Part shown: positions 42,761 to 57,640 of the stretch, piece after piece
Layout: each line of letters starts with the position of its first letter
Position numbering within the stretch: position 1 is the first letter of the stretch
The notes under the pieces: model-generated
What the model was told of the DNA's origin: nothing
The model's database searches: none
The model's input: the letters and a program-made list of their open reading frames with translations, nothing else
Position numbers and translations under genes: made by a program
NCBI GenBank assembly: GCA_044368015.1
Contig: JBIPLF010000005.1
Span: 2,985 to 66,984 of the forward strand
Source: Rickettsiales bacterium
GTDB lineage: Bacteria; Pseudomonadota; Alphaproteobacteria; Rickettsiales; RI-342
Reading direction: 5' to 3'
DNA length: 64,000 bases

Positions 42761-43669
42761 GTGCCCCATTTCCTAGACCTCGCGCCGCTGGAACCCGCTA
42801 CGCTGCGGCACATCCTGCGGCTTGCATCCGACCTCAAAACCCGTTGGAAGGCGGGGGATCGCCCGCGCCTGCTCGATGGCAAAGTGCTCGCGATGATTTT
42901 CGAGAAAAGCTCCACCCGCACCCGCATTTCGTTTGAGGTGGCGATGCTGCAACTGGGCGGAAACGCGACCATCCTCACCAAGGAAAATTCGCAACTGGGA
43001 CGCGGCGAATCCCCCGCCGATACCGCCCGGACGCTCTCCCGCTATACGGATGCGATCATGATGCGCTGCTACAAGCAGGAGGATCTGGAGATCATGGCGG
43101 AAACCGGTTCCGTGCCGGTGATTAATGGGCTGACCGATTACAGCCACCCCTGTCAGGTAATGGCGGATATCCTGACCTTTGAGGAGCATCGCGGGCCGAT
43201 CACCGGCAAACGTATTGCGTGGATTGGCGACGGCAACAACATGGCGGTTTCCTGGATTCACGCGGCGGCGCGGCTTGGGTTCACCCTGTCGCTTGCCTAT
43301 CCGGAGAATTTCGCGCCGTTTCAAACCGTGCTCGACTGGGCGAAGGCGGAAGGCGCGGATATTCGCATCTGCCGCACCCCACAGGAGGCCGTCGCGGGCG
43401 CGAGTCTTATCAACACCGATACTTGGATTTCCATGCACGATCAGGACAGCCCCCTGCGCGGGCGCATCTTCCAGCCCTATCAGGTCAATGATGCGCTGAT
43501 GGCGCTCGCCAGTCCGGACGCGCTCTTCATGCACTGCCTGCCTGCCAAACGCGGCGAGGAAGTCACCGAAAGCGTGCTCGACGGCCCACAATCGGTCATC
43601 TGGGATGAGGCCGAAAACCGCCTGCATATCCAGAAGGCGATTCTGGCGTGGTGTTTGGGGGTGGGGTGA
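42761..43669 (+). CDS. argF: Ornithine carbamoyltransferase
   Basis: Contains STRTRISFE, HPCQ and HCLPA. GTG start. Confidence 0.96.
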   Translation: MPHFLDLAPLEPATLRHILRLASDLKTRWKAGDRPRLLDGKVLAMIFEKSSTRTRISFEVAMLQLGGNATILTKENSQLGRGESPADTARTLSRYTDAIMMRCYKQEDLEIMAETGSVPVINGLTDYSHPCQVMADILTFEEHRGPITGKRIAWIGDGNNMAVSWIHAAARLGFTLSLAYPENFAPFQTVLDWAKAEGADIRICRTPQEAVAGASLINTDTWISMHDQDSPLRGRIFQPYQVNDALMALASPDALFMHCLPAKRGEEVTESVLDGPQSVIWDEAENRLHIQKAILAWCLGVG

Positions 43670-43677
43670 GGGAGAGG

Positions 43678-43735
43678 GATCAGGATTCGGGATTCAGGGG
43701 TCAGTAAACGCCCCCTCCCTATCCCTCCGCTTCGC
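43678..43735. repeat. GGATTCA-type heptamer module plus the left arm of family P
   Basis: GATCAGGATTCGGGATTCAGGGGTCAG followed by CCCCCTCCCTATCCCTCCGCTTCGC. Confidence 0.75.
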
Positions 43736-43796
43736 AGCTGTTGGCGGCGGCTTACCCATACCAAGCGGATTGGGGAACCGACGGATGGCTGGGGGG

Positions 43797-44009
43797 TTAC
43801 CCCCGTAAAGATTCCGTGGCCGGAGGCTTAGAGAGGTCGCCAGCCAGTTGACCTAGCCGCACCACCGTACCAGCAGTAACTGGTACAGCTCCGCCGCTCA
43901 CTACAGTGCCGATGGGTGTGGGTGTTACCGCGAACCCATCTCCTACAGGAGTAGACGGAAGCGGGCCTCCATCGTTTGCATCGTGTAGAAGATATTCTGA
44001 TTTTTCCAT
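43797..44009 (-). CDS. Small hypothetical protein A (70 aa)
   Basis: Strong SD AAGGAGG 4 nt before the ATG. A conserved upstream element is shared with 51906-52202. LHDANDGGPLPSTP is weakly similar to LHSNDTDGLPKGAP in protein B. Confidence 0.5.
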   Translation of the reverse strand: MEKSEYLLHDANDGGPLPSTPVGDGFAVTPTPIGTVVSGGAVPVTAGTVVRLGQLAGDLSKPPATESLRG

Positions 44010-44036
44010 ACGTCCTCCTTGAATCTATAAGGAGGT

Positions 44037-44092
44037 AATGCTAACCCGCCGATGTTGCTTTTTTTTTCGGATTGATGACTGTTTCGTGACAA
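44037..44092 (-). promoter_or_regulatory. Conserved upstream element, copy A
   Basis: The minus strand reads TTGTCACGAAACAGTCATCAATCCGAAAAAAAAAGCAACATCGGCGGGTTAGCATT. By hand alignment, 45 of 55 positions are identical to copy B. Confidence 0.5.
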
Positions 44093-44112
44093 ACCCATAA
44101 CGTAGGAATAGA

Positions 44113-45051
44113 ATGACCGTTCCCGATTCCCCCACGCTGGATATCCACCAGCCTTTCATGATCGAAACCTCCAACCTGCGCGGGCGGGCAGTGCGGCTGG
44201 GGCCGATTTTGCATCACATCATCACGCGGCACGACTATCCGGCGCGGGTAAATGGCTGGCTCGCCGAGCTGGTGTTGCTGGCGGCGCTCCTGTCGCGGAT
44301 GCTGAAGAGCGGCAACGGGTTGACCATTCAGGTGCAGGGCGACGGCCCCCTGAAGCTCATGGTGGCCGATGTGATGGCAAACGGCGATTTGCGCGCCTGC
44401 GCGACGCTGGATGCGGAATCCCCCCTCTTCCACACCGTCAACGATGCCGAGCTTCCCTTGCAGGATTTCACCGGCAAAGCCTATCTGGCGATTACGCTGG
44501 AGCCGGGCGATGGCGGCGAACGCTATCAGGGGATTGTACCGCTGGAACATGCAAGCCTCAGCGAATGCGTCATCGCCTATTTCCGCCAGTCGGAGCAGAT
44601 TGAGGTCGCCCTGCAACTGGCCGCCGGGCCGGATAAGCAAGGAAACTGGCATGCGGGCGGCATTCTGCTTCAGCAATTGCCGGAACAGAGCGCCCCCGCC
44701 ACCGAGAATGTGTTGTTTCTGGATTTCGGGGGCGATACCTCCGCATCCTATGGCAGTGAGGCCTGGAACCGCGCCAAGCTTTTTTTACGCAGCGTCACCC
44801 GCTACGAGTTGCTGGACGCCGAACTCCCCATGCCGGATTTGCTCTACCGCCTGTTCCATGAGGAAGGCGTGCGGCTGTTCGACGCCACCCCACTCACCGA
44901 GGGCTGCCGCTGCTCCCGCGAGCGCATCGAGGGGTTTTTGCGCGATCTCTCCCCCGGCGAGCGCGAGGAACTCTACGAGGCAGGCTTCATCCGCGTGCGG
45001 TGCGAATTCTGCAACCGCGAGGAGCTATTTGACGATGAGTTGCGGGGGTAG
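44113..45051 (+). CDS. hslO: Redox-regulated chaperone Hsp33
   Basis: The C-terminal zinc centre reads CRCSRERIEGFL...VRCEFCNREELF. The argD-argF-hslO order is typical of alphaproteobacteria. Confidence 0.95.
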   Translation: MTVPDSPTLDIHQPFMIETSNLRGRAVRLGPILHHIITRHDYPARVNGWLAELVLLAALLSRMLKSGNGLTIQVQGDGPLKLMVADVMANGDLRACATLDAESPLFHTVNDAELPLQDFTGKAYLAITLEPGDGGERYQGIVPLEHASLSECVIAYFRQSEQIEVALQLAAGPDKQGNWHAGGILLQQLPEQSAPATENVLFLDFGGDTSASYGSEAWNRAKLFLRSVTRYELLDAELPMPDLLYRLFHEEGVRLFDATPLTEGCRCSRERIEGFLRDLSPGEREELYEAGFIRVRCEFCNREELFDDELRG

Positions 45052-51905: not shown

Positions 51906-52202
51906 CTAACCCCCAAGAACGTTGCGCCTGTTCCTCCAGTCCCCCCCTCCCGCAGCACTGGTAACAGCTGCTACGGTTCGGTAATCTTCTAAGTCACCCT
52001 CGCCCATAGCCCGGATCTCACCCAGCGATGTGTCCCCCAGTACCCTTCTGATCCCTTTTGCTTCCTGATAGGAGGCTGCGTTGCCAGTTATGGGGGCACC
52101 TTTAGGGAGACCGTCTGTGTCATTGGAATGTAAAGCTTGACCATAGTCTTGACCGATACCATGTTCATGATGGTTATAGTTATAGTTATTAACGTTTGGC
52201 AT
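51906..52202 (-). CDS. Small hypothetical protein B (98 aa)
   Basis: Start trimmed to ATG 52202 (MPNVNNYNYNHHEHG...), with SD GGGAG. Preceded by the conserved upstream element, copy B. Confidence 0.45.
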   Translation of the reverse strand: MPNVNNYNYNHHEHGIGQDYGQALHSNDTDGLPKGAPITGNAASYQEAKGIRRVLGDTSLGEIRAMGEGDLEDYRTVAAVTSAAGGGDWRNRRNVLGG

Positions 52203-52236: not shown

Positions 52237-52292
52237 AATCCTAACCCACGGATGTGTCTTTTTTTTTCTGAAAGATGAATGTTTTGTGACAG
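52237..52292 (-). promoter_or_regulatory. Conserved upstream element, copy B
   Basis: The minus strand reads CTGTCACAAAACATTCATCTTTCAGAAAAAAAAAGACACATCCGTGGGTTAGGATT. A second TGTCACAAATC box lies at 52219-52229. Confidence 0.5.
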
Positions 52293-52299
52293 TGAGGGT

Positions 52300-52422
52300 G
52301 TCATGCTGACCCTGAGCAACGCGAAGGGGAAGTATCTCCCCGCTGGGACAGACAATACGGTGGTGCCTTATCCTATGCAGTGCCCTGCCAGTGGAGGGAT
52401 GCTTCGTTGCACTCAGCATGAC
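52300..52422. repeat. Family B palindromic element
   Basis: GTCATGCTGACCCTGAGCAACGCGAAGGGGAAGTATCTCCCCGC...GGAGGGATGCTTCGTTGCACTCAGCATGAC. Confidence 0.85.
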
Positions 52423-52475: not shown

Positions 52476-53447
52476 ATGACCCCACTCTCCTTCATCCACA
52501 CGTTGGCCGACCTCGCGGGCGAGGTACTCCGCCCCTATTACCGCTCGCCGCTGGTGATTGATTCCAAGGGCGACCGCTCGCCGGTTACCGAGGCCGACCG
52601 CGCCGTGGAACGTGCCTTGCGGGAAGCCATCCGCAAGGCCTATCCGGAGCATGGGATTGTGGGGGAGGAATACGGCGCGGAAAACCCGGACGCCGAGTTC
52701 TGCTGGTATCTGGACCCCATCGACGGCACGCTGTCCTTCATGCATGGCAAGCCGCTCTTCACCACGCTGATTGCGCTCTGCCATCGCGGCATTCCGGTGC
52801 TGGGATGCATCGACCAGCCGATTCTTGGGGATCGCTGGGTGGGGGGAAAGGACGCACCGACGGTGCATCAGGGGTCAGGGTTCAGGATTCAGGATTCAGG
52901 ATACCCCCTCCCTATCCCTCCCCCGCAAGCGGGAGAGGGGACCGGAGGAGAGGCCTCTCCTACTGACCAAACGTTGATCGTAAAGCGCGATGGTGCATCC
53001 GGTCCCCTCTCCCGCTTGCGTGGGAGGGATAGGGAGGGGGTGTTGTTTGCAAGCCACCAGCCACTAATCACTAGCCACTGTAAAACCCGCCCCTACACCT
53101 CCCTCGCCGAGGCCAGCTTCTCCACCACCTCGCCCTATCTCTTTAACCCGCAGGAGCGGGCGGCGTTTGAGCGCATCCGCGAGCAGTGCCGCTACACGCT
53201 GTTTGGGGGCGATGCCTACGCCTACGGGATGCTCGCTTCCGGGCAGATCGATTTAGTAGTGGAGGCAGGCTTACAGGATCACGATTTTCTGCCGCTCGTC
53301 GCGGTGATTGAAGGCGCGGGCGGCATCATGACCGACTGGGAGGGCAACCCGCTCACCACCCAATCCGACGGACGGGTGATCGCCGCGGGGGATAGAAGAG
53401 TGCATGCACAGGTGGTGGGGATGCTATCGGGAGGAGGACCCATGTAA
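52476..53447 (+). CDS. Inositol monophosphatase family protein, histidinol-phosphatase (HisN)-like, carrying a 68-codon in-frame repeat insertion
   Basis: Contains SPVTEADRAVE, WYLDPIDGT, FGGDAYAYGMLASGQIDLVVE and LPLVAVIEGAGGIMTDW. The conserved sequence is interrupted at 52875-53078. Confidence 0.85.
   Translation: MTPLSFIHTLADLAGEVLRPYYRSPLVIDSKGDRSPVTEADRAVERALREAIRKAYPEHGIVGEEYGAENPDAEFCWYLDPIDGTLSFMHGKPLFTTLIALCHRGIPVLGCIDQPILGDRWVGGKDAPTVHQGSGFRIQDSGYPLPIPPPQAGEGTGGEASPTDQTLIVKRDGASGPLSRLRGRDREGVLFASHQPLITSHCKTRPYTSLAEASFSTTSPYLFNPQERAAFERIREQCRYTLFGGDAYAYGMLASGQIDLVVEAGLQDHDFLPLVAVIEGAGGIMTDWEGNPLTTQSDGRVIAAGDRRVHAQVVGMLSGGGPM
52875..53078. repeat. Composite repeat inside the CDS: GGATTCA heptamers + family P palindrome + CCACT/AGCCAC module
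   Basis: 204 nt (68 codons). TCAGGGTTCAGGATTCAGGATTCAGGATA, then CCCCCTCCCTATCCCTCCCCCGCAAGCGGGAGAGGGGACCGG...CCGGTCCCCTCTCCCGCTTGCGTGGGAGGGATAGGGAGGGGG. Confidence 0.85.
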
Positions 53448-53636
53448 AGACTCACGCCGATCTCTCGTCTCTTTACTGATGCCCGGCCACCCGCGCTGCC
53501 AGTTAGTTGCCTCATTAAACTCCCGCCGAGCCTGTTCCGAAGTAAACACTATGCCTGCCGGTCCTATTATTGGTTGCCCAGCTTCCGGTGCGATGGGTTG
53601 TTCGCCAGAAATTTGATCGGTAACGAAATCATTCAT
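53424..53636 (-). CDS. Small hypothetical protein C (70 aa)
   Basis: Preceded by a diverged copy of the conserved upstream element. Weak SD. The 3' end overlaps the convergent hisN-like gene by 24 nt. Confidence 0.3.
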   Translation of the reverse strand: MNDFVTDQISGEQPIAPEAGQPIIGPAGIVFTSEQARREFNEATNWQRGWPGISKETRDRRESLHGSSSR

Positions 53637-53682: not shown

Positions 53683-53726
53683 CAATGTGTCTTTTTTGTT
53701 GCCGAAGAACGAAACTTTTGTGATTG
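53683..53726 (-). promoter_or_regulatory. Conserved upstream element, diverged copy C
   Basis: The minus strand reads CAATCACAAAAGTTTCGTTCTTCGGCAACAAAAAAGACACATTG. Confidence 0.35.
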
Positions 53727-57182: not shown

Positions 57183-57312
57183 GGGCCGGAGTGTAGACGA
57201 AGCGCGCAGCGAGATACAAGGGTTTTGCGGAAACCAATCAAGAGCACGTCACAAAACATTAATACATATGTGGTATCGTTTGCTTCGGTTCAATTAAATG
57301 ATGGAGTGATAT

Positions 57313-57640
57313 ATGGTTATGAAGGTCAATGGAAATGAAGGCGGCCCGATCGTTAATCTTTATACAGGAGATCGTGGTGCATTTCAGGTGGGCGGGCAAG
57401 GCTACAGCATTAACATATTGGATCAACAGCGTAACGAGTTGGATACTTTCACCCCCCCCCCCCGCAGGGCAGGATGCGGTGGAGTATGTGGCGAACGCGT
57501 TAACTGGTGCCGTGCTCAAACACGGGGCCGGTGAGATACACGGCGTTGATATCGATCGTCGCTATGATGATAATGCACGGAGTAAACACTGGATCGCAGA
57601 TGTGGCCACAACGCTGCGTAACAATGGAGTTGTGAAATAG
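57313..57640 (+). pseudogene. Small gene split by a C12 tract (two frames: 57313-57534 and the tail of 57329-57640)
   Basis: In frame 1, MVMKVNGNEGGPIVNLYTGDRGAFQVGGQGYSINILDQQRNELDTFTPPP looks protein-like up to the tract. After the tract, frame 2 (AGQDAVEYVANALTGAVLKHGAGEIHGVDIDRRYDDNARSKHWIADVATTLRNNGVVK) looks protein-like, while frame 1 turns Arg/Cys-rich. Confidence 0.5.
57452..57463 (+). repeat. Homopolymeric C12 tract
   Basis: Read directly from the sequence. Confidence 0.95.

Follow-up and report, generated by a model that had tools for sequence, protein, structure and literature searches.

A 55-nt sequence element that recurs upstream of small ORFs in this uncultured Rickettsiales relative is probably an activator-dependent, sigma-70-type promoter with a double Pho box, and its 11 full copies would be the double-box members of a regulon comprising about 70 promoters. 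In the mechanism that appears most likely, a PhoB orthologue would bind each copy as tandem dimers and recruit RNA polymerase in place of a -35 element, and each copy would drive one lineage-specific orphan ORF of 65-98 aa. The other predicted regulon members are pstCAB, rvh-type type IV secretion system (T4SS) genes (virB3-virB4-virB6 paralogues and a VirB2-like pilin), RTX-like proteins, and about 40 other orphan ORFs.

Architecture and ancestry of the 55-nt element

A genome-wide nhmmer search (1.92 Mb) retrieved 11 full copies (E-values from 1e-17 to 4e-06) and two decayed copies. The following features were located in the window, that is, the whole 64-kb stretch of DNA that was analysed.

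44037..44091, minus strand: element A, 55-nt two-Pho-box promoter (TGTCACGAAACAGTCATCAATCCGAAAAAAAAAGCAACATCGGCGGGTTAGCATT), nhmmer E 7e-14
44075..44091, minus strand: distal consensus Pho box of element A, units 1-2 (TGTCAC GAAAC AGTCAT), matching the CTGTCAT-type 11-nt repeats of E. coli (PMC4415409)
44059..44067, minus strand: A9 run of element A, unit 3 of the 11-bp register
44038..44043, minus strand: -10 hexamer TAGCAT of element A, preceded by GGGT (extended -10), 10 nt past the half-site GCAAC
44029..44035, minus strand: anti-Shine-Dalgarno (anti-SD) arm CCTCCTT of element A, beginning 3 nt past the -10; duplexfold duplex from nt 2
44014..44020, minus strand: Shine-Dalgarno (SD) sequence AAGGAGG of ORF A, 3' arm of the stem
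43797..44009, minus strand: ORF A, 70 aa, orphan, rich in G, P, T and V
52237..52291, minus strand: element B, consensus-like, with A9 at 52259-52267 and -10 TAGGAT at 52238-52243
51906..52202, minus strand: ORF B, 98 aa, orphan
52300..52422, no strand assigned: REP-like palindrome of about 120 bp, ending 8 nt upstream of element B
53685..53725, minus strand: decayed copy C (AATCACAAAAGTTTCGTTCTTCGGCAACAAAAAAGACACAT), nhmmer E 0.01, -10 part not conserved
53424..53636, minus strand: ORF C, 70 aa, orphan
57247..57279, plus strand: box-only promoter (CGTCACAAAACATTAAT, 10 nt, TATCGT) before a small gene (ATG at 57313), described earlier as split by a C12 run
5701..5728, minus strand: three consecutive half-sites (TGTGATGAAAC, CGTCAAAAAAA, TGTCAT), 10 nt, TAAGGT, before a VirB2-like pilin gene

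The proximal half-site of element A, GCAAC, is degenerate. The preliminary description had counted 45 identical positions among 55 ungapped ones between elements A and B, and this count holds, with both elements on the minus strand. The diverged copy that it placed before ORF C was recovered at 53685-53725, and the isolated box at 57247-57263 on the plus strand. ORFs A, B and C all lie on the minus strand, each with an SD sequence and an ATG downstream of its element. Element B, including its A9 run, is identical in an independent run assembly.

All 13 copies in the genome are located upstream of ORFs in a single orientation, and all 11 full copies are followed by an SD-ATG at a strict distance and orientation. 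The element is also far better conserved than the coding regions, with a mean pairwise identity of 0.81 over the 55 nt versus 0.29 in the CDS. Its borders are sharp, with identity of 0.27 in the upstream 30 nt and 0.39 just past the -10.

Each full copy consists of four 11-bp units in strict register, followed by TGGGT and the -10 hexamer TAGGAT (extended -10, TGGGTTAGGAT). The four units read nTGTCACAAAA, CCTTCATTTTT, CAGAAAAAAAA, and AGACACATCCG. Units 1-2 together make up a Pho box of consensus sequence. Unit 3, which lacks a TGTCA-like core, is replaced by an A-run. The degenerate half-site of unit 4 (GACAC) comes 10 nt before the -10, where ordinary Pho promoters have their proximal half-site. 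The consensus box of the full element sits 21 nt further upstream than unit 4, with the -10 at 30-32 nt. In E. coli, the PHO box comprises two 11-nt direct repeat units, each with a 7-nt core (CTGTCAT) and a less conserved 4-nt tail (PMC4415409). The direct repeats at 11-bp spacing noticed earlier in the 5' part are of this type, and the geometry of box, 10 nt and -10 matches that of PhoB-dependent promoters.

The A-run between units 2 and 4 is present in all 11 copies (A8-10), and its length differs among the paralogous copies. Eight of the 14 A/T runs of at least 9 nt in the genome lie inside these elements. A simple repeat between the activator/-35 site and the -10 is the arrangement expected of a phase-variable promoter, and the A8-10 run may tune promoter phasing or switch the promoter on and off.

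Other assignments of the element were rejected. A sigma-54 promoter (TGGCAC-N5-TTGC) would require the GG and GC invariants, neither of which occurs in the distal box or in GACACATCCGTGGGT. The CtrA helix of this genome is presumably Caulobacter-like and implies TTAA sites, while the box core is GTCA. An IHF site (WATCAANNNNTTR) does not match the consensus, and the AAC/CGT pair of an ECF-type -35/-10 is absent at the proper spacing.

The TTTTCAG and ATCCG positions are nearly invariant among the full copies and variable in box-only promoters. PhoB is not expected to read these positions strictly, so that PhoB contacts alone would be insufficient to explain their conservation, which suggests common ancestry or the binding of a second factor. 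It is quite possible, though we lean against it, that one promoter, perhaps together with a REP-like palindrome, was recently copied, or that small genes were inserted as complete cassettes. In either case, the conservation would be a sign of ancestry rather than of dense functional contacts; as this concerns only origin, it is compatible with a Pho-type function. Such copying would fit the drop in identity, at sharp borders, from 0.81 in the element to about 0.28 in the sequence on either side, and also the non-contact positions fixed in the full copies. Similar promoters before non-homologous genes of one genome are a described phenomenon (mobile promoters or promoter reuse; Nijveen, Matus-Garcia and van Passel 2012, PMC3575422), and near-identical promoters precede non-homologous genes here as well; unlike in those cases, a readable regulatory grammar and a fixed series of anti-SD, SD and small ORF downstream are found here.

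The palindrome adjoins six of the 11 full copies and only one of the 65 box-only promoters, which also favours copying. However, its end lies at a variable distance from the box (6-31 nt), five full copies have no palindrome, and the genome encodes no RAYT/Y1 transposase. We found neither terminal repeats or target duplications nor any cassette boundary or transposition machinery at the element loci, and the sequence downstream of the stop codons has neither a conserved motif nor a conserved 3' boundary. The possibility raised earlier that the similarity belongs to a dispersed repeat family is not borne out, as most palindrome ends (75 with a strict pattern, 323 with a looser one) have no promoter. 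For the double-Pho-box promoter, the palindrome may provide added insulation or may be a trace of the spread of the unit.

The base composition of the downstream ORFs looks foreign: their G+C content is 0.46-0.57 and their GC3 0.36-0.58, compared to 0.595 and 0.70 in long genes, so that the low-G+C islets noted earlier are real. The islet of ORF A, between argF and hslO, is absent from four relatives (G001-G004), and one of these, G004 of a sister genus, has its own propagated family of box-(CT)n-leader promoters, with (CT)6-11 in place of the A-run. Both observations speak for copying, but the relatives within the family are very distant (HslO 41-52% identical), and lineage-specific therefore need not mean recent. 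The full 55-nt element was not found in 40 relatives, nor in four family members searched with 3 mismatches. JGI metagenome contigs, queried with two patterns, and contigs of GTDB genomes returned just one chance match, in a Ruminococcus MAG. As these searches recovered no full element outside this genome, there is no phylogenetic footprint for the whole 55 nt.

The box regulon and its candidate regulator

The distal box alone (TGTCAYAAAACNKTCAT) exceeds background by about 70 occurrences, and a -10 usually follows it after 10 nt. Allowing up to 3 mismatches, 91 boxes were found in the genome compared to 16-28 in reversed or block-shuffled genomes, and about 75 of them are intergenic. A PWM built from the 91 instances reads TGTCA(C/T)AAAAC-n-(G/T)TCAT. 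The offset from box to -10 peaks sharply at 10 nt (TAnnnT in 13/65, TAnnnN in 23/65), and secondary peaks at +21-23 and +32-33 indicate an 11-bp periodicity. With the element one-oriented upstream of ORFs and part of a putative regulon of about 70 sites, the co-regulated gene set proposed in the preliminary description is supported.

Boxes precede pstCAB, the virB3-virB4-virB6 genes, RTX-like genes, the gene for a VirB2-like pilin, and some 40 small ORFs without relatives. At C4:12767, a 104-aa ORF and pstCAB follow a box that has 2 mismatches. The box at C87:19925 precedes virB3 (PF05101, E 5e-26), virB4, and three large ORFs assigned to virB6 by size, and a half-site in the correct register stands before virB8. 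The mark of a T4SS effector regulon, a regulatory site shared by apparatus genes and candidate substrates, is thus present, and the small ORFs may be effectors. By eye, their C-termini have no common charge pattern.

A PhoB equivalog is encoded in the genome (TIGR02154, 353.9 bits against a cut-off of 296). Its recognition helix is RTVDVHVRRLRKAL, which we take to be the same as that of E. coli PhoB. Signalling partners are encoded too: PhoU and a PhoR-like kinase (310.7 bits, narrowly missing the cut-off of 334). PstB scores above its cut-off, and pstC and pstA were assigned from operon position and size. The features of a PhoB promoter, namely at least two 11-nt repeat units, a box that serves as -35 and ends about 10 bp before the -10, and PhoB with its Pst, PhoU and PhoR partners, are all found here. 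PhoB is most likely the regulator, as judged from box identity and helix conservation.

Another winged-helix response regulator, either the OmpR-like protein at C5:692-1438 or the receiver-less C36 orphan, might read the box instead, and the regulon would then be of a virulence type unrelated to phosphate. We consider this unlikely. Of the five Trans_reg_C proteins encoded in the genome, two reach none of the NCBIfam equivalog cut-offs, and the C36 orphan has no NCBIfam match at E≤1e-10. Secretion genes and orphans, not classical Pho genes, dominate the regulon, and no box was found before the only PstS-like gene (C5:8012), phoU or phoB. Moreover, the virB3 promoters of seven relatives have a tandem repeat 10 nt before a -10, and variant repeats (TGTAAG..TGAAAC or TTAA-N7-TTAAC) in virB3 promoters of relatives suggest regulator turnover. 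Against a different regulator, the PhoB recognition helix is conserved, whereas the OmpR-like protein has an OmpR-type helix (RTVDVQITRLRRKI) and the CtrA helix is presumably Caulobacter-like. A box precedes pstCAB, and the box excess tracks PhoB orthologues: boxes are enriched in 16/16 relatives with a PhoB orthologue of at least 65% identity versus 1/14 without, a correlation confounded by phylogeny and base composition. Finally, the box is the same as the PhoB consensus of E. coli, down to the A-rich spacers of 4 nt and the 10 nt that separate it from the -10 (PMC4415409).

Leaders and small ORFs downstream of the element

Each copy has its own anti-SD arm, placed between the -10 and the predicted transcription start. 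The SD pairing probability is 0.86 in the full copies versus 0.40 in the background (p 1e-5). The duplexes are copy-specific and covary, with a mean energy of -10.3 kcal/mol for own partners and -7.6 kcal/mol for cross partners (permutation p 0.00025), as expected for an SD-sequestering stem. In six of the seven strong cases, the arm starts 1-3 nt past the -10 hexamer. Sigma-70 holoenzyme normally starts at about position 7-8 after the -10, and a purine following a pyrimidine run occupies position 7-8 in 8/10 copies, as read from the sequences. Given the arm position, a canonical start would leave most of the arm out of the RNA.

We infer that the arm insulates the small ORFs from read-through. 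Only read-through transcripts would carry the anti-SD arm and be translationally silent, while PhoB-driven transcripts would start within or after it. The same geometry is known from IS10/Tn10 (Davis, Simons and Kleckner 1985, cited in PMC13181058): there, the ribosome-binding site is paired with a stretch that lies ahead of the start of the element's own transcript, so that only read-through transcripts are silenced. Here, the genes are chromosomal small ORFs rather than a transposase, and the start is predicted. If the true start lay upstream of the arm, the insulation model would fail.

In that case, with transcription starting at or before the first base of the arm, the stem would sequester the SD in the native mRNA and work as a translational switch, either thermometer-like or opened by a factor, or else stabilise the mRNA at its 5' end. 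The strong, copy-specific complementarity of arm and SD would suit this, and in the virB3 leader the anti-SD lies well inside the predicted transcript. It seems improbable, because an arm only 1-3 nt past the -10, together with the purine at position 7-8, excludes most of the arm from the RNA. Despite the high conservation of the 55 nt and their location before genes, it is hardly credible that they form a structured RNA, be it a small RNA or a cis-regulatory leader, or a dispersed repeat without function, since RNAalifold gave zero consensus base pairs over the 11 copies, no Rfam match reached the gathering threshold in the window, the element closes with its -10 and leaves 26-40 nt to the ATG, and orientation and SD-ATG distance (11/11) as well as the 11-bp register are strict.

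Each copy of the element, full or decayed, is followed by one monocistronic ORF of 65-98 aa in the same orientation, with a chance of staying open of 0.006-0.065 per reading frame. The ORFs had been described as a family, but they share no detectable homology: in an all-against-all BLASTP of about 60 regulon proteins, the downstream small ORFs showed no similarity at E<0.01, and the sole matching pair was two RTX-like proteins. The LH-x-ND-x-G-LP motif reported for proteins A and B is not significant, with no A-B match at E<1. Secretion of the peptides by the Sec route finds no support either, as no ORF has a suggestive N-terminal hydrophobic segment.

The absence of a recognisable protein family was upheld, with only sub-threshold Pfam matches (DUF6699, E 0.16; HVO_2248, E 0.0044). 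Searches of PHROGs and an exact-cluster look-up returned self-matches only, as did a word-indexed search with ORF A. An exhaustive phmmer search with ORF B detected no relative among 1.84 billion representatives apart from itself, and the exact sequence of ORF C is absent from the protein collection. The AF2 model of ORF B is uninformative (pLDDT 46). For the C64 ORF, one of five AF2 models has a generic ferredoxin-like beta-alpha-beta-beta-alpha-beta fold (pLDDT 88), with generic structure matches only.

Comparison with known systems and biological meaning

At pstS, two boxes stand in a 22-bp register and the promoter-proximal box is the weaker; the same layout is seen here. Tandem-Pho-box promoters of this type in E. 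coli also share the 11-nt units with a TGTCA(Y) core and an A/T-rich 4-nt tail, the box in place of the -35 ending 10 nt before the -10, and a PhoB equivalog with presumably the same recognition helix (PMC4415409). Unlike in E. coli, unit 3 is a pure A-run here, and 11 promoters with unrelated genes behind them share about 81% identity over the 55 nt. Orphan ORFs and secretion genes, rather than phosphate-scavenging enzymes, are the predicted targets.

The PmrA regulon of Legionella and Coxiella, in which a winged-helix-turn-helix (wHTH) response regulator activates about 40 Icm/Dot effector genes (PMC6989116), resembles the present regulon in having a tandem repeat for a wHTH regulator just upstream of the -10 of dozens of scattered, mostly uncharacterised genes. 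In L. pneumophila, regulation of the icm/dot genes is credited to CpxR and not to PmrA (PMC6989116), whereas T4SS components carry the repeat here too. The motif is TGTCA instead of TTAAT, the regulator is a different family member, and the secretion system is of the rvh/VirB type and not Dot/Icm. Most of the small candidate proteins are shorter than known effectors.

Promoters with a homopolymer are known from other multigene sets. In the vlp genes of Mycoplasma hyorhinis, near-identical promoter regions precede divergent coding regions and poly(A) length gates transcription, as may be the case here. In contrast, the vlp products are lipoproteins homologous to one another, and the tract sits in the -35/-10 spacer of an activator-independent promoter. 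The fim promoters of Bordetella are activated by BvgA. In this activator-dependent family (fim2, fim3 and fimX, with a fim box and a C-stretch), the length of the promoter homopolymer sets transcription (PMC1891110). Compared to fim, the run is A8-10 instead of C10-18, the downstream genes are not paralogous, and the length differences were seen between copies only.

If this interpretation is true, one promoter grammar marks about 70 co-regulated genes in an uncultured Rickettsiales relative, and a secretion machine together with about 50 proteins without relatives would provide a candidate list of host-interaction factors. A nutrient-sensing regulator would have been recruited as a master switch over secretion genes; our literature search turned up no report of a connection between Pho boxes and type IV secretion in this order. 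The copies would also show promoter copying in front of new or foreign small genes, and would place three stacked safeguards (activator dependence, a length-variable spacer, and an anti-SD across the start) on genes that have to stay off until they are required. As box enrichment extends to many families of the order, the approach would be transferable to other genomes. More speculatively, and with the odds somewhat against it, the PhoB regulon of this deep-branching Rickettsiales-like lineage may have become a contingency system, in which families of near-identical double-Pho-box promoters with a hypermutable repeat between strong activator site and -10 (A8-10 here, (CT)6-11 in the sister genus), fast-evolving or new small proteins, T4SS co-regulation and anti-SD shielding would yield phosphate-cued, stochastically expressed factors for interaction with a host or prey.

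Copies and architecture of the 55-nt element

The element, or its 5' box alone, was located at four sites in the window:
44037–44091, minus strand, element A, upstream of small ORF A
52237–52291, minus strand, element B, upstream of small ORF B
53685–53725, decayed copy, before ORF C
57247–57263, plus strand, 5' box alone

Elements A and B agree at 45 of 55 ungapped positions, as the preliminary description had counted. A genome-wide search was performed on the source assembly (1.92 Mb, 57% G+C, 87 contigs; the window is C8:2985–66984) with a profile built from eight copies. This search retrieved 11 full copies (E values 1e-17 to 4e-06) and two decayed copies, far beyond chance. The copies are oriented toward a downstream ORF of 65–98 aa with a Shine-Dalgarno (SD) sequence and an ATG, with exceptions on contig C33, where the frame is interrupted, and on contig C76, which has no convincing ORF. 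At the C33 copy (C33:37324, minus strand) the frame is broken after 31 codons, and the remainder, ending in ...TYTIKE, resembles the other small ORFs in style; this locus is probably a recently broken member. Mean pairwise identity among copies is 0.81 over the 55 nt, compared with 0.27 over the preceding 30 nt, 0.39 just past the -10 hexamer and 0.29 in the coding sequence. Eleven contigs of 2.5–4.2 kb in the same assembly (C37–C39, C43, C51, C53, C57, C60–C62 and C72) have a G+C content below 45% and may represent a foreign replicon or bin contamination.

The consensus of the element, TGTCACAAAACCTTCATTTTTCAGAAAAAAAAAGACACATCCGTGGGTTAGGATT, can be parsed in 11-nt steps:
Unit 1, nTGTCACAAAA
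Unit 2, CCTTCATTTTT
Unit 3, CAGAAAAAAAA, the A-run
Unit 4, AGACACATCCG, with GACAC, a half-site with one mismatch
Spacer and -10 hexamer, TGGGT and TAGGAT

A PHO box is currently defined as a pair of 11-nt direct-repeat units, in each of which seven positions are conserved and four less so, the E. coli core being CTGTCAT (PMC4415409). Units 1 and 2 fit this definition, confirming the Pho-box-like 11-nt repeat previously suspected in the 5' part. No consensus RNA secondary structure was found among the copies, and the element has no match in Rfam. The element is a real, promoter-like sequence with a double-Pho-box grammar.

Full copies are linked to a REP-like palindrome of approximately 110–120 bp, which ends 6–31 nt upstream of 6 of the 11 full copies versus 1 of 65 box-only promoters (those lacking the full element). 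This linkage may bear on how the promoter spread. Palindrome ends number 75 genome-wide with a strict pattern and 323 with a looser one, and most of them lack the promoter, which argues against the alternative that the element is simply part of a dispersed repeat family. No RAYT is encoded in the genome.

Box regulon and candidate regulator

The distal box was searched as the 17-mer TGTCA(C/T)AAAAC-n-(G/T)TCAT with ≤3 mismatches. It occurs 91 times in the genome versus 16–28 times in reversed or block-shuffled genomes, and approximately 75 instances are intergenic and aimed at a nearby ORF. Among 65 intergenic box-only cases, TAnnnT peaks exactly 10 nt past the box (13 cases; 23 for TAnnnN), with lesser hexamer peaks at +21–23 and +32–33, showing an 11-bp periodicity. 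In PhoB-dependent promoters of E. coli the box replaces the -35, the same box-to-hexamer geometry as seen here, and the pstS promoter of E. coli contains two boxes, of which the proximal one is weaker. In the full element, the -10 lies 30–32 nt past the consensus box and the degenerate unit 4 occupies the canonical 10-nt position, indicating a double-box promoter. The box regulon is genome-wide and has canonical geometry.

Five Trans_reg_C proteins are encoded in the genome:
C58:83933–84628, PhoB equivalog (NCBIfam TIGR02154, 353.9 bits, cut-off 296)
C58:8399, CtrA equivalog (NCBIfam)
C22 and C5, proteins under all NCBIfam equivalog cut-offs
C36, orphan protein with no NCBIfam family at E ≤ 1e-10

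The helix of PhoB, RTVDVHVRRLRKAL, agrees with the DNA-contacting residues of E. coli PhoB, and the CtrA helix is of the Caulobacter type, implying TTAA sites. The genome further encodes PhoU, pstCAB and a PhoR-like kinase. A box precedes a 104-aa ORF followed by pstCAB, and none was found at the sole PstS-like gene of the genome. In 40 relatives from the order, box matches were further compared with a control pattern. A box excess (12–66 matches versus 0–8 for the control) is seen in every one of the 16 genomes whose PhoB orthologue has ≥65% identity, and is lacking in 13 of the 14 that have no orthologue. This distribution agrees with PhoB, but relatedness and base composition confound it. 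PhoB is a reasonably well-favoured candidate for the regulator reading the box; it would bind there in response to phosphate.

Orphan small ORFs and their leaders

None of the ten small ORFs tested has a Pfam match above threshold or any PHROG match, and all are singleton 90% clusters. ORF A (43797–44009, minus strand) matched only itself among 5.8 billion proteins, and ORF B (51906–52202, minus strand) only itself in an exhaustive reading of 1.84 billion representatives, consistent with the earlier impression that these ORFs belong to no recognisable family. No similarity among them was detected either, which does not support a protein family, and the motif assigned to A and B is not significant. 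The chance of an open frame is 0.006–0.065 for each of nine frames, and an SD at a fixed distance precedes all of them. GC3 of the small ORFs is 0.36–0.58 versus 0.70 in long genes, in keeping with the lower-G+C islets noted before. For the 84-aa ORF on contig C64, one of five AF2 models run on the single sequence gave a confident ferredoxin-like domain (pLDDT 88) whose fold matches were all generic, and ORF B was unpredictable by AF2 (pLDDT 46).

In four family relatives argF and hslO are adjacent with no such ORF between them, indicating that the ORF A islet (43670–44112) is lineage-specific. In the interval 43640–43760, the stops of argF and ORF A are separated by an imperfect inverted stretch, G-rich/C-rich (GGGGTGGGGTGAGGGAGAGGGATCAGGATTCGGGATTCAGGGGTCAG ... 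CCCCCTCCCTATCCCTCC), which could act as a bidirectional terminator between these convergent genes. On the plus strand, the region of copy A's distal box (44075–44112) reads TTGATG-N17/18-CATAAC immediately ahead of hslO, whose start is at 44113, and the -35-like TTGATG arises where copy A departs from the consensus. This box may lie within the hslO promoter in part, in which case regulator binding could repress hslO.

The SD pairs with upstream sequence with a mean probability of 0.86 in full copies versus 0.40 in 416 background genes (p 1e-5); the value for box-only members is 0.54. The duplex between the 5' segment and the SD region averages -10.3 kcal/mol for a copy's own SD versus -7.6 kcal/mol for those of other copies (permutation p 0.00025), indicating that the complementarity is copy-specific. 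The anti-SD 5' arm begins 1–3 nt past the -10 hexamer in 6 of 7 strong cases, and 8 of 10 copies have a purine after a pyrimidine run at position 7–8, the normal start for the sigma-70 holoenzyme. Transcripts from the element's own promoter, if they start there, would lack most of the anti-SD, and those that read in from elsewhere would include it and stay silent. With a start further upstream, the stem would instead be an ordinary translational switch. Insulation from read-through, which the arm may provide at the predicted start site, would follow the logic described for IS10 (Davis et al., 1985, as cited in PMC13181058).

Simple repeats and type IV secretion genes

The A-run is 8, 9 or 10 nt long depending on the copy, and the spacer thus varies in length among copies. 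Eight of the 14 A/T runs of ≥9 nt in the genome fall inside elements, and the A9 of copy B is identical in an independent run assembly. Homopolymers of ≥8 nt within 110 nt downstream of boxes number 17 versus 0.85 expected, a 20-fold enrichment. Other box loci (C10:6832, C11:5590, C34:35876, C50:26517, C59:92081 and C79:7046) have G/C or T runs of 8–10 nt in their promoter, their leader or the first codons of the small ORF, and the small gene at 57313–57534 of the window is C12-split according to the preliminary description. The box regulon looks rich in contingency-type tracts.

The genome G004 represents another genus within the family. In it, at least six loci (L054, L057, L070, L071, L072 and L074) share TGTCAYAAAAAYTTCAT-TTGC-(CT)6-11-AATGTGGGTAGCGT, where TGTCAYAAAAAYTTCAT is a Pho box. 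A conserved leader of approximately 170 nt follows, with a long hairpin ending in GAAAGGGTGGTGTGACATG. These loci precede different small ORFs (46–135 aa), of which those at L071 and L072 are similar by eye, and the box-to-hexamer offsets are 30, 32, 34, 34 and 36. A further G004 locus, L053, has a G10 run in place of (CT)n. With the A-run here and (CT)n in G004, a simple repeat between a strong activator site and the -10 recurs in two genera. This arrangement recalls the Bordetella fim promoters, which combine a conserved fim box with a C-stretch that sets transcription through its length (PMC1891110). The spacer may mediate phase variation.

A box is located upstream of virB3 (PF05101, E 5e-26). 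Next come an 805-aa virB4 and three ORFs of approximately 500 aa, putatively VirB6-like from their size and position. This gene order is the Rickettsiales rvh arrangement, and 40 of 41 genomes in the order Rickettsiales have VirB3. One related site lies in the window:
5701–5728, three consecutive half-sites, upstream of a VirB2-like pilin gene

Further box members encode two RTX-like proteins, one HU-like, one RamC_N-fold and one alpha/beta-hydrolase-like protein, seven proteins of 259–482 aa without Pfam matches, and approximately 40 small ORFs of 40–110 aa. The RamC_N match (E 2e-9) is in a 232-aa ORF (C13:13335, minus strand), a candidate enzyme among the orphans; the RamC_N domain is related to the phosphothreonine-lyase fold that some secreted effectors have.

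The virB3 promoters of relatives across the order (L012, L016, L017, L023, L026, L035 and L036) were compared. In seven relatives they contain a tandem repeat with variant cores, placed 10 nt ahead of a -10, and two relatives, G010 (L017) and G020 (L035), instead have a perfect CtrA-type TTAA-N7-TTAAC. The core is of the TGTCA type in the source genome and in G039, and TGTAAG..TGAAAC in several genomes. A changing core at a constant architecture suggests regulator turnover. In Legionella, the winged-helix regulator PmrA activates about 40 effector genes (PMC6989116). The box regulon here resembles that regulon, with the small proteins as putative substrates only, and may have a secretion-linked role in host or prey interaction.

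Orphan small ORFs, a PhoB equivalog and copy-specific anti-SD arms are all present in this genome. Collectively, the system is a variant combining known kinds, namely Pho-box promoters, promoter reuse and contingency promoters, rather than a new category. Of moderate interest is how these are combined and tied to the type IV secretion genes of the lineage.
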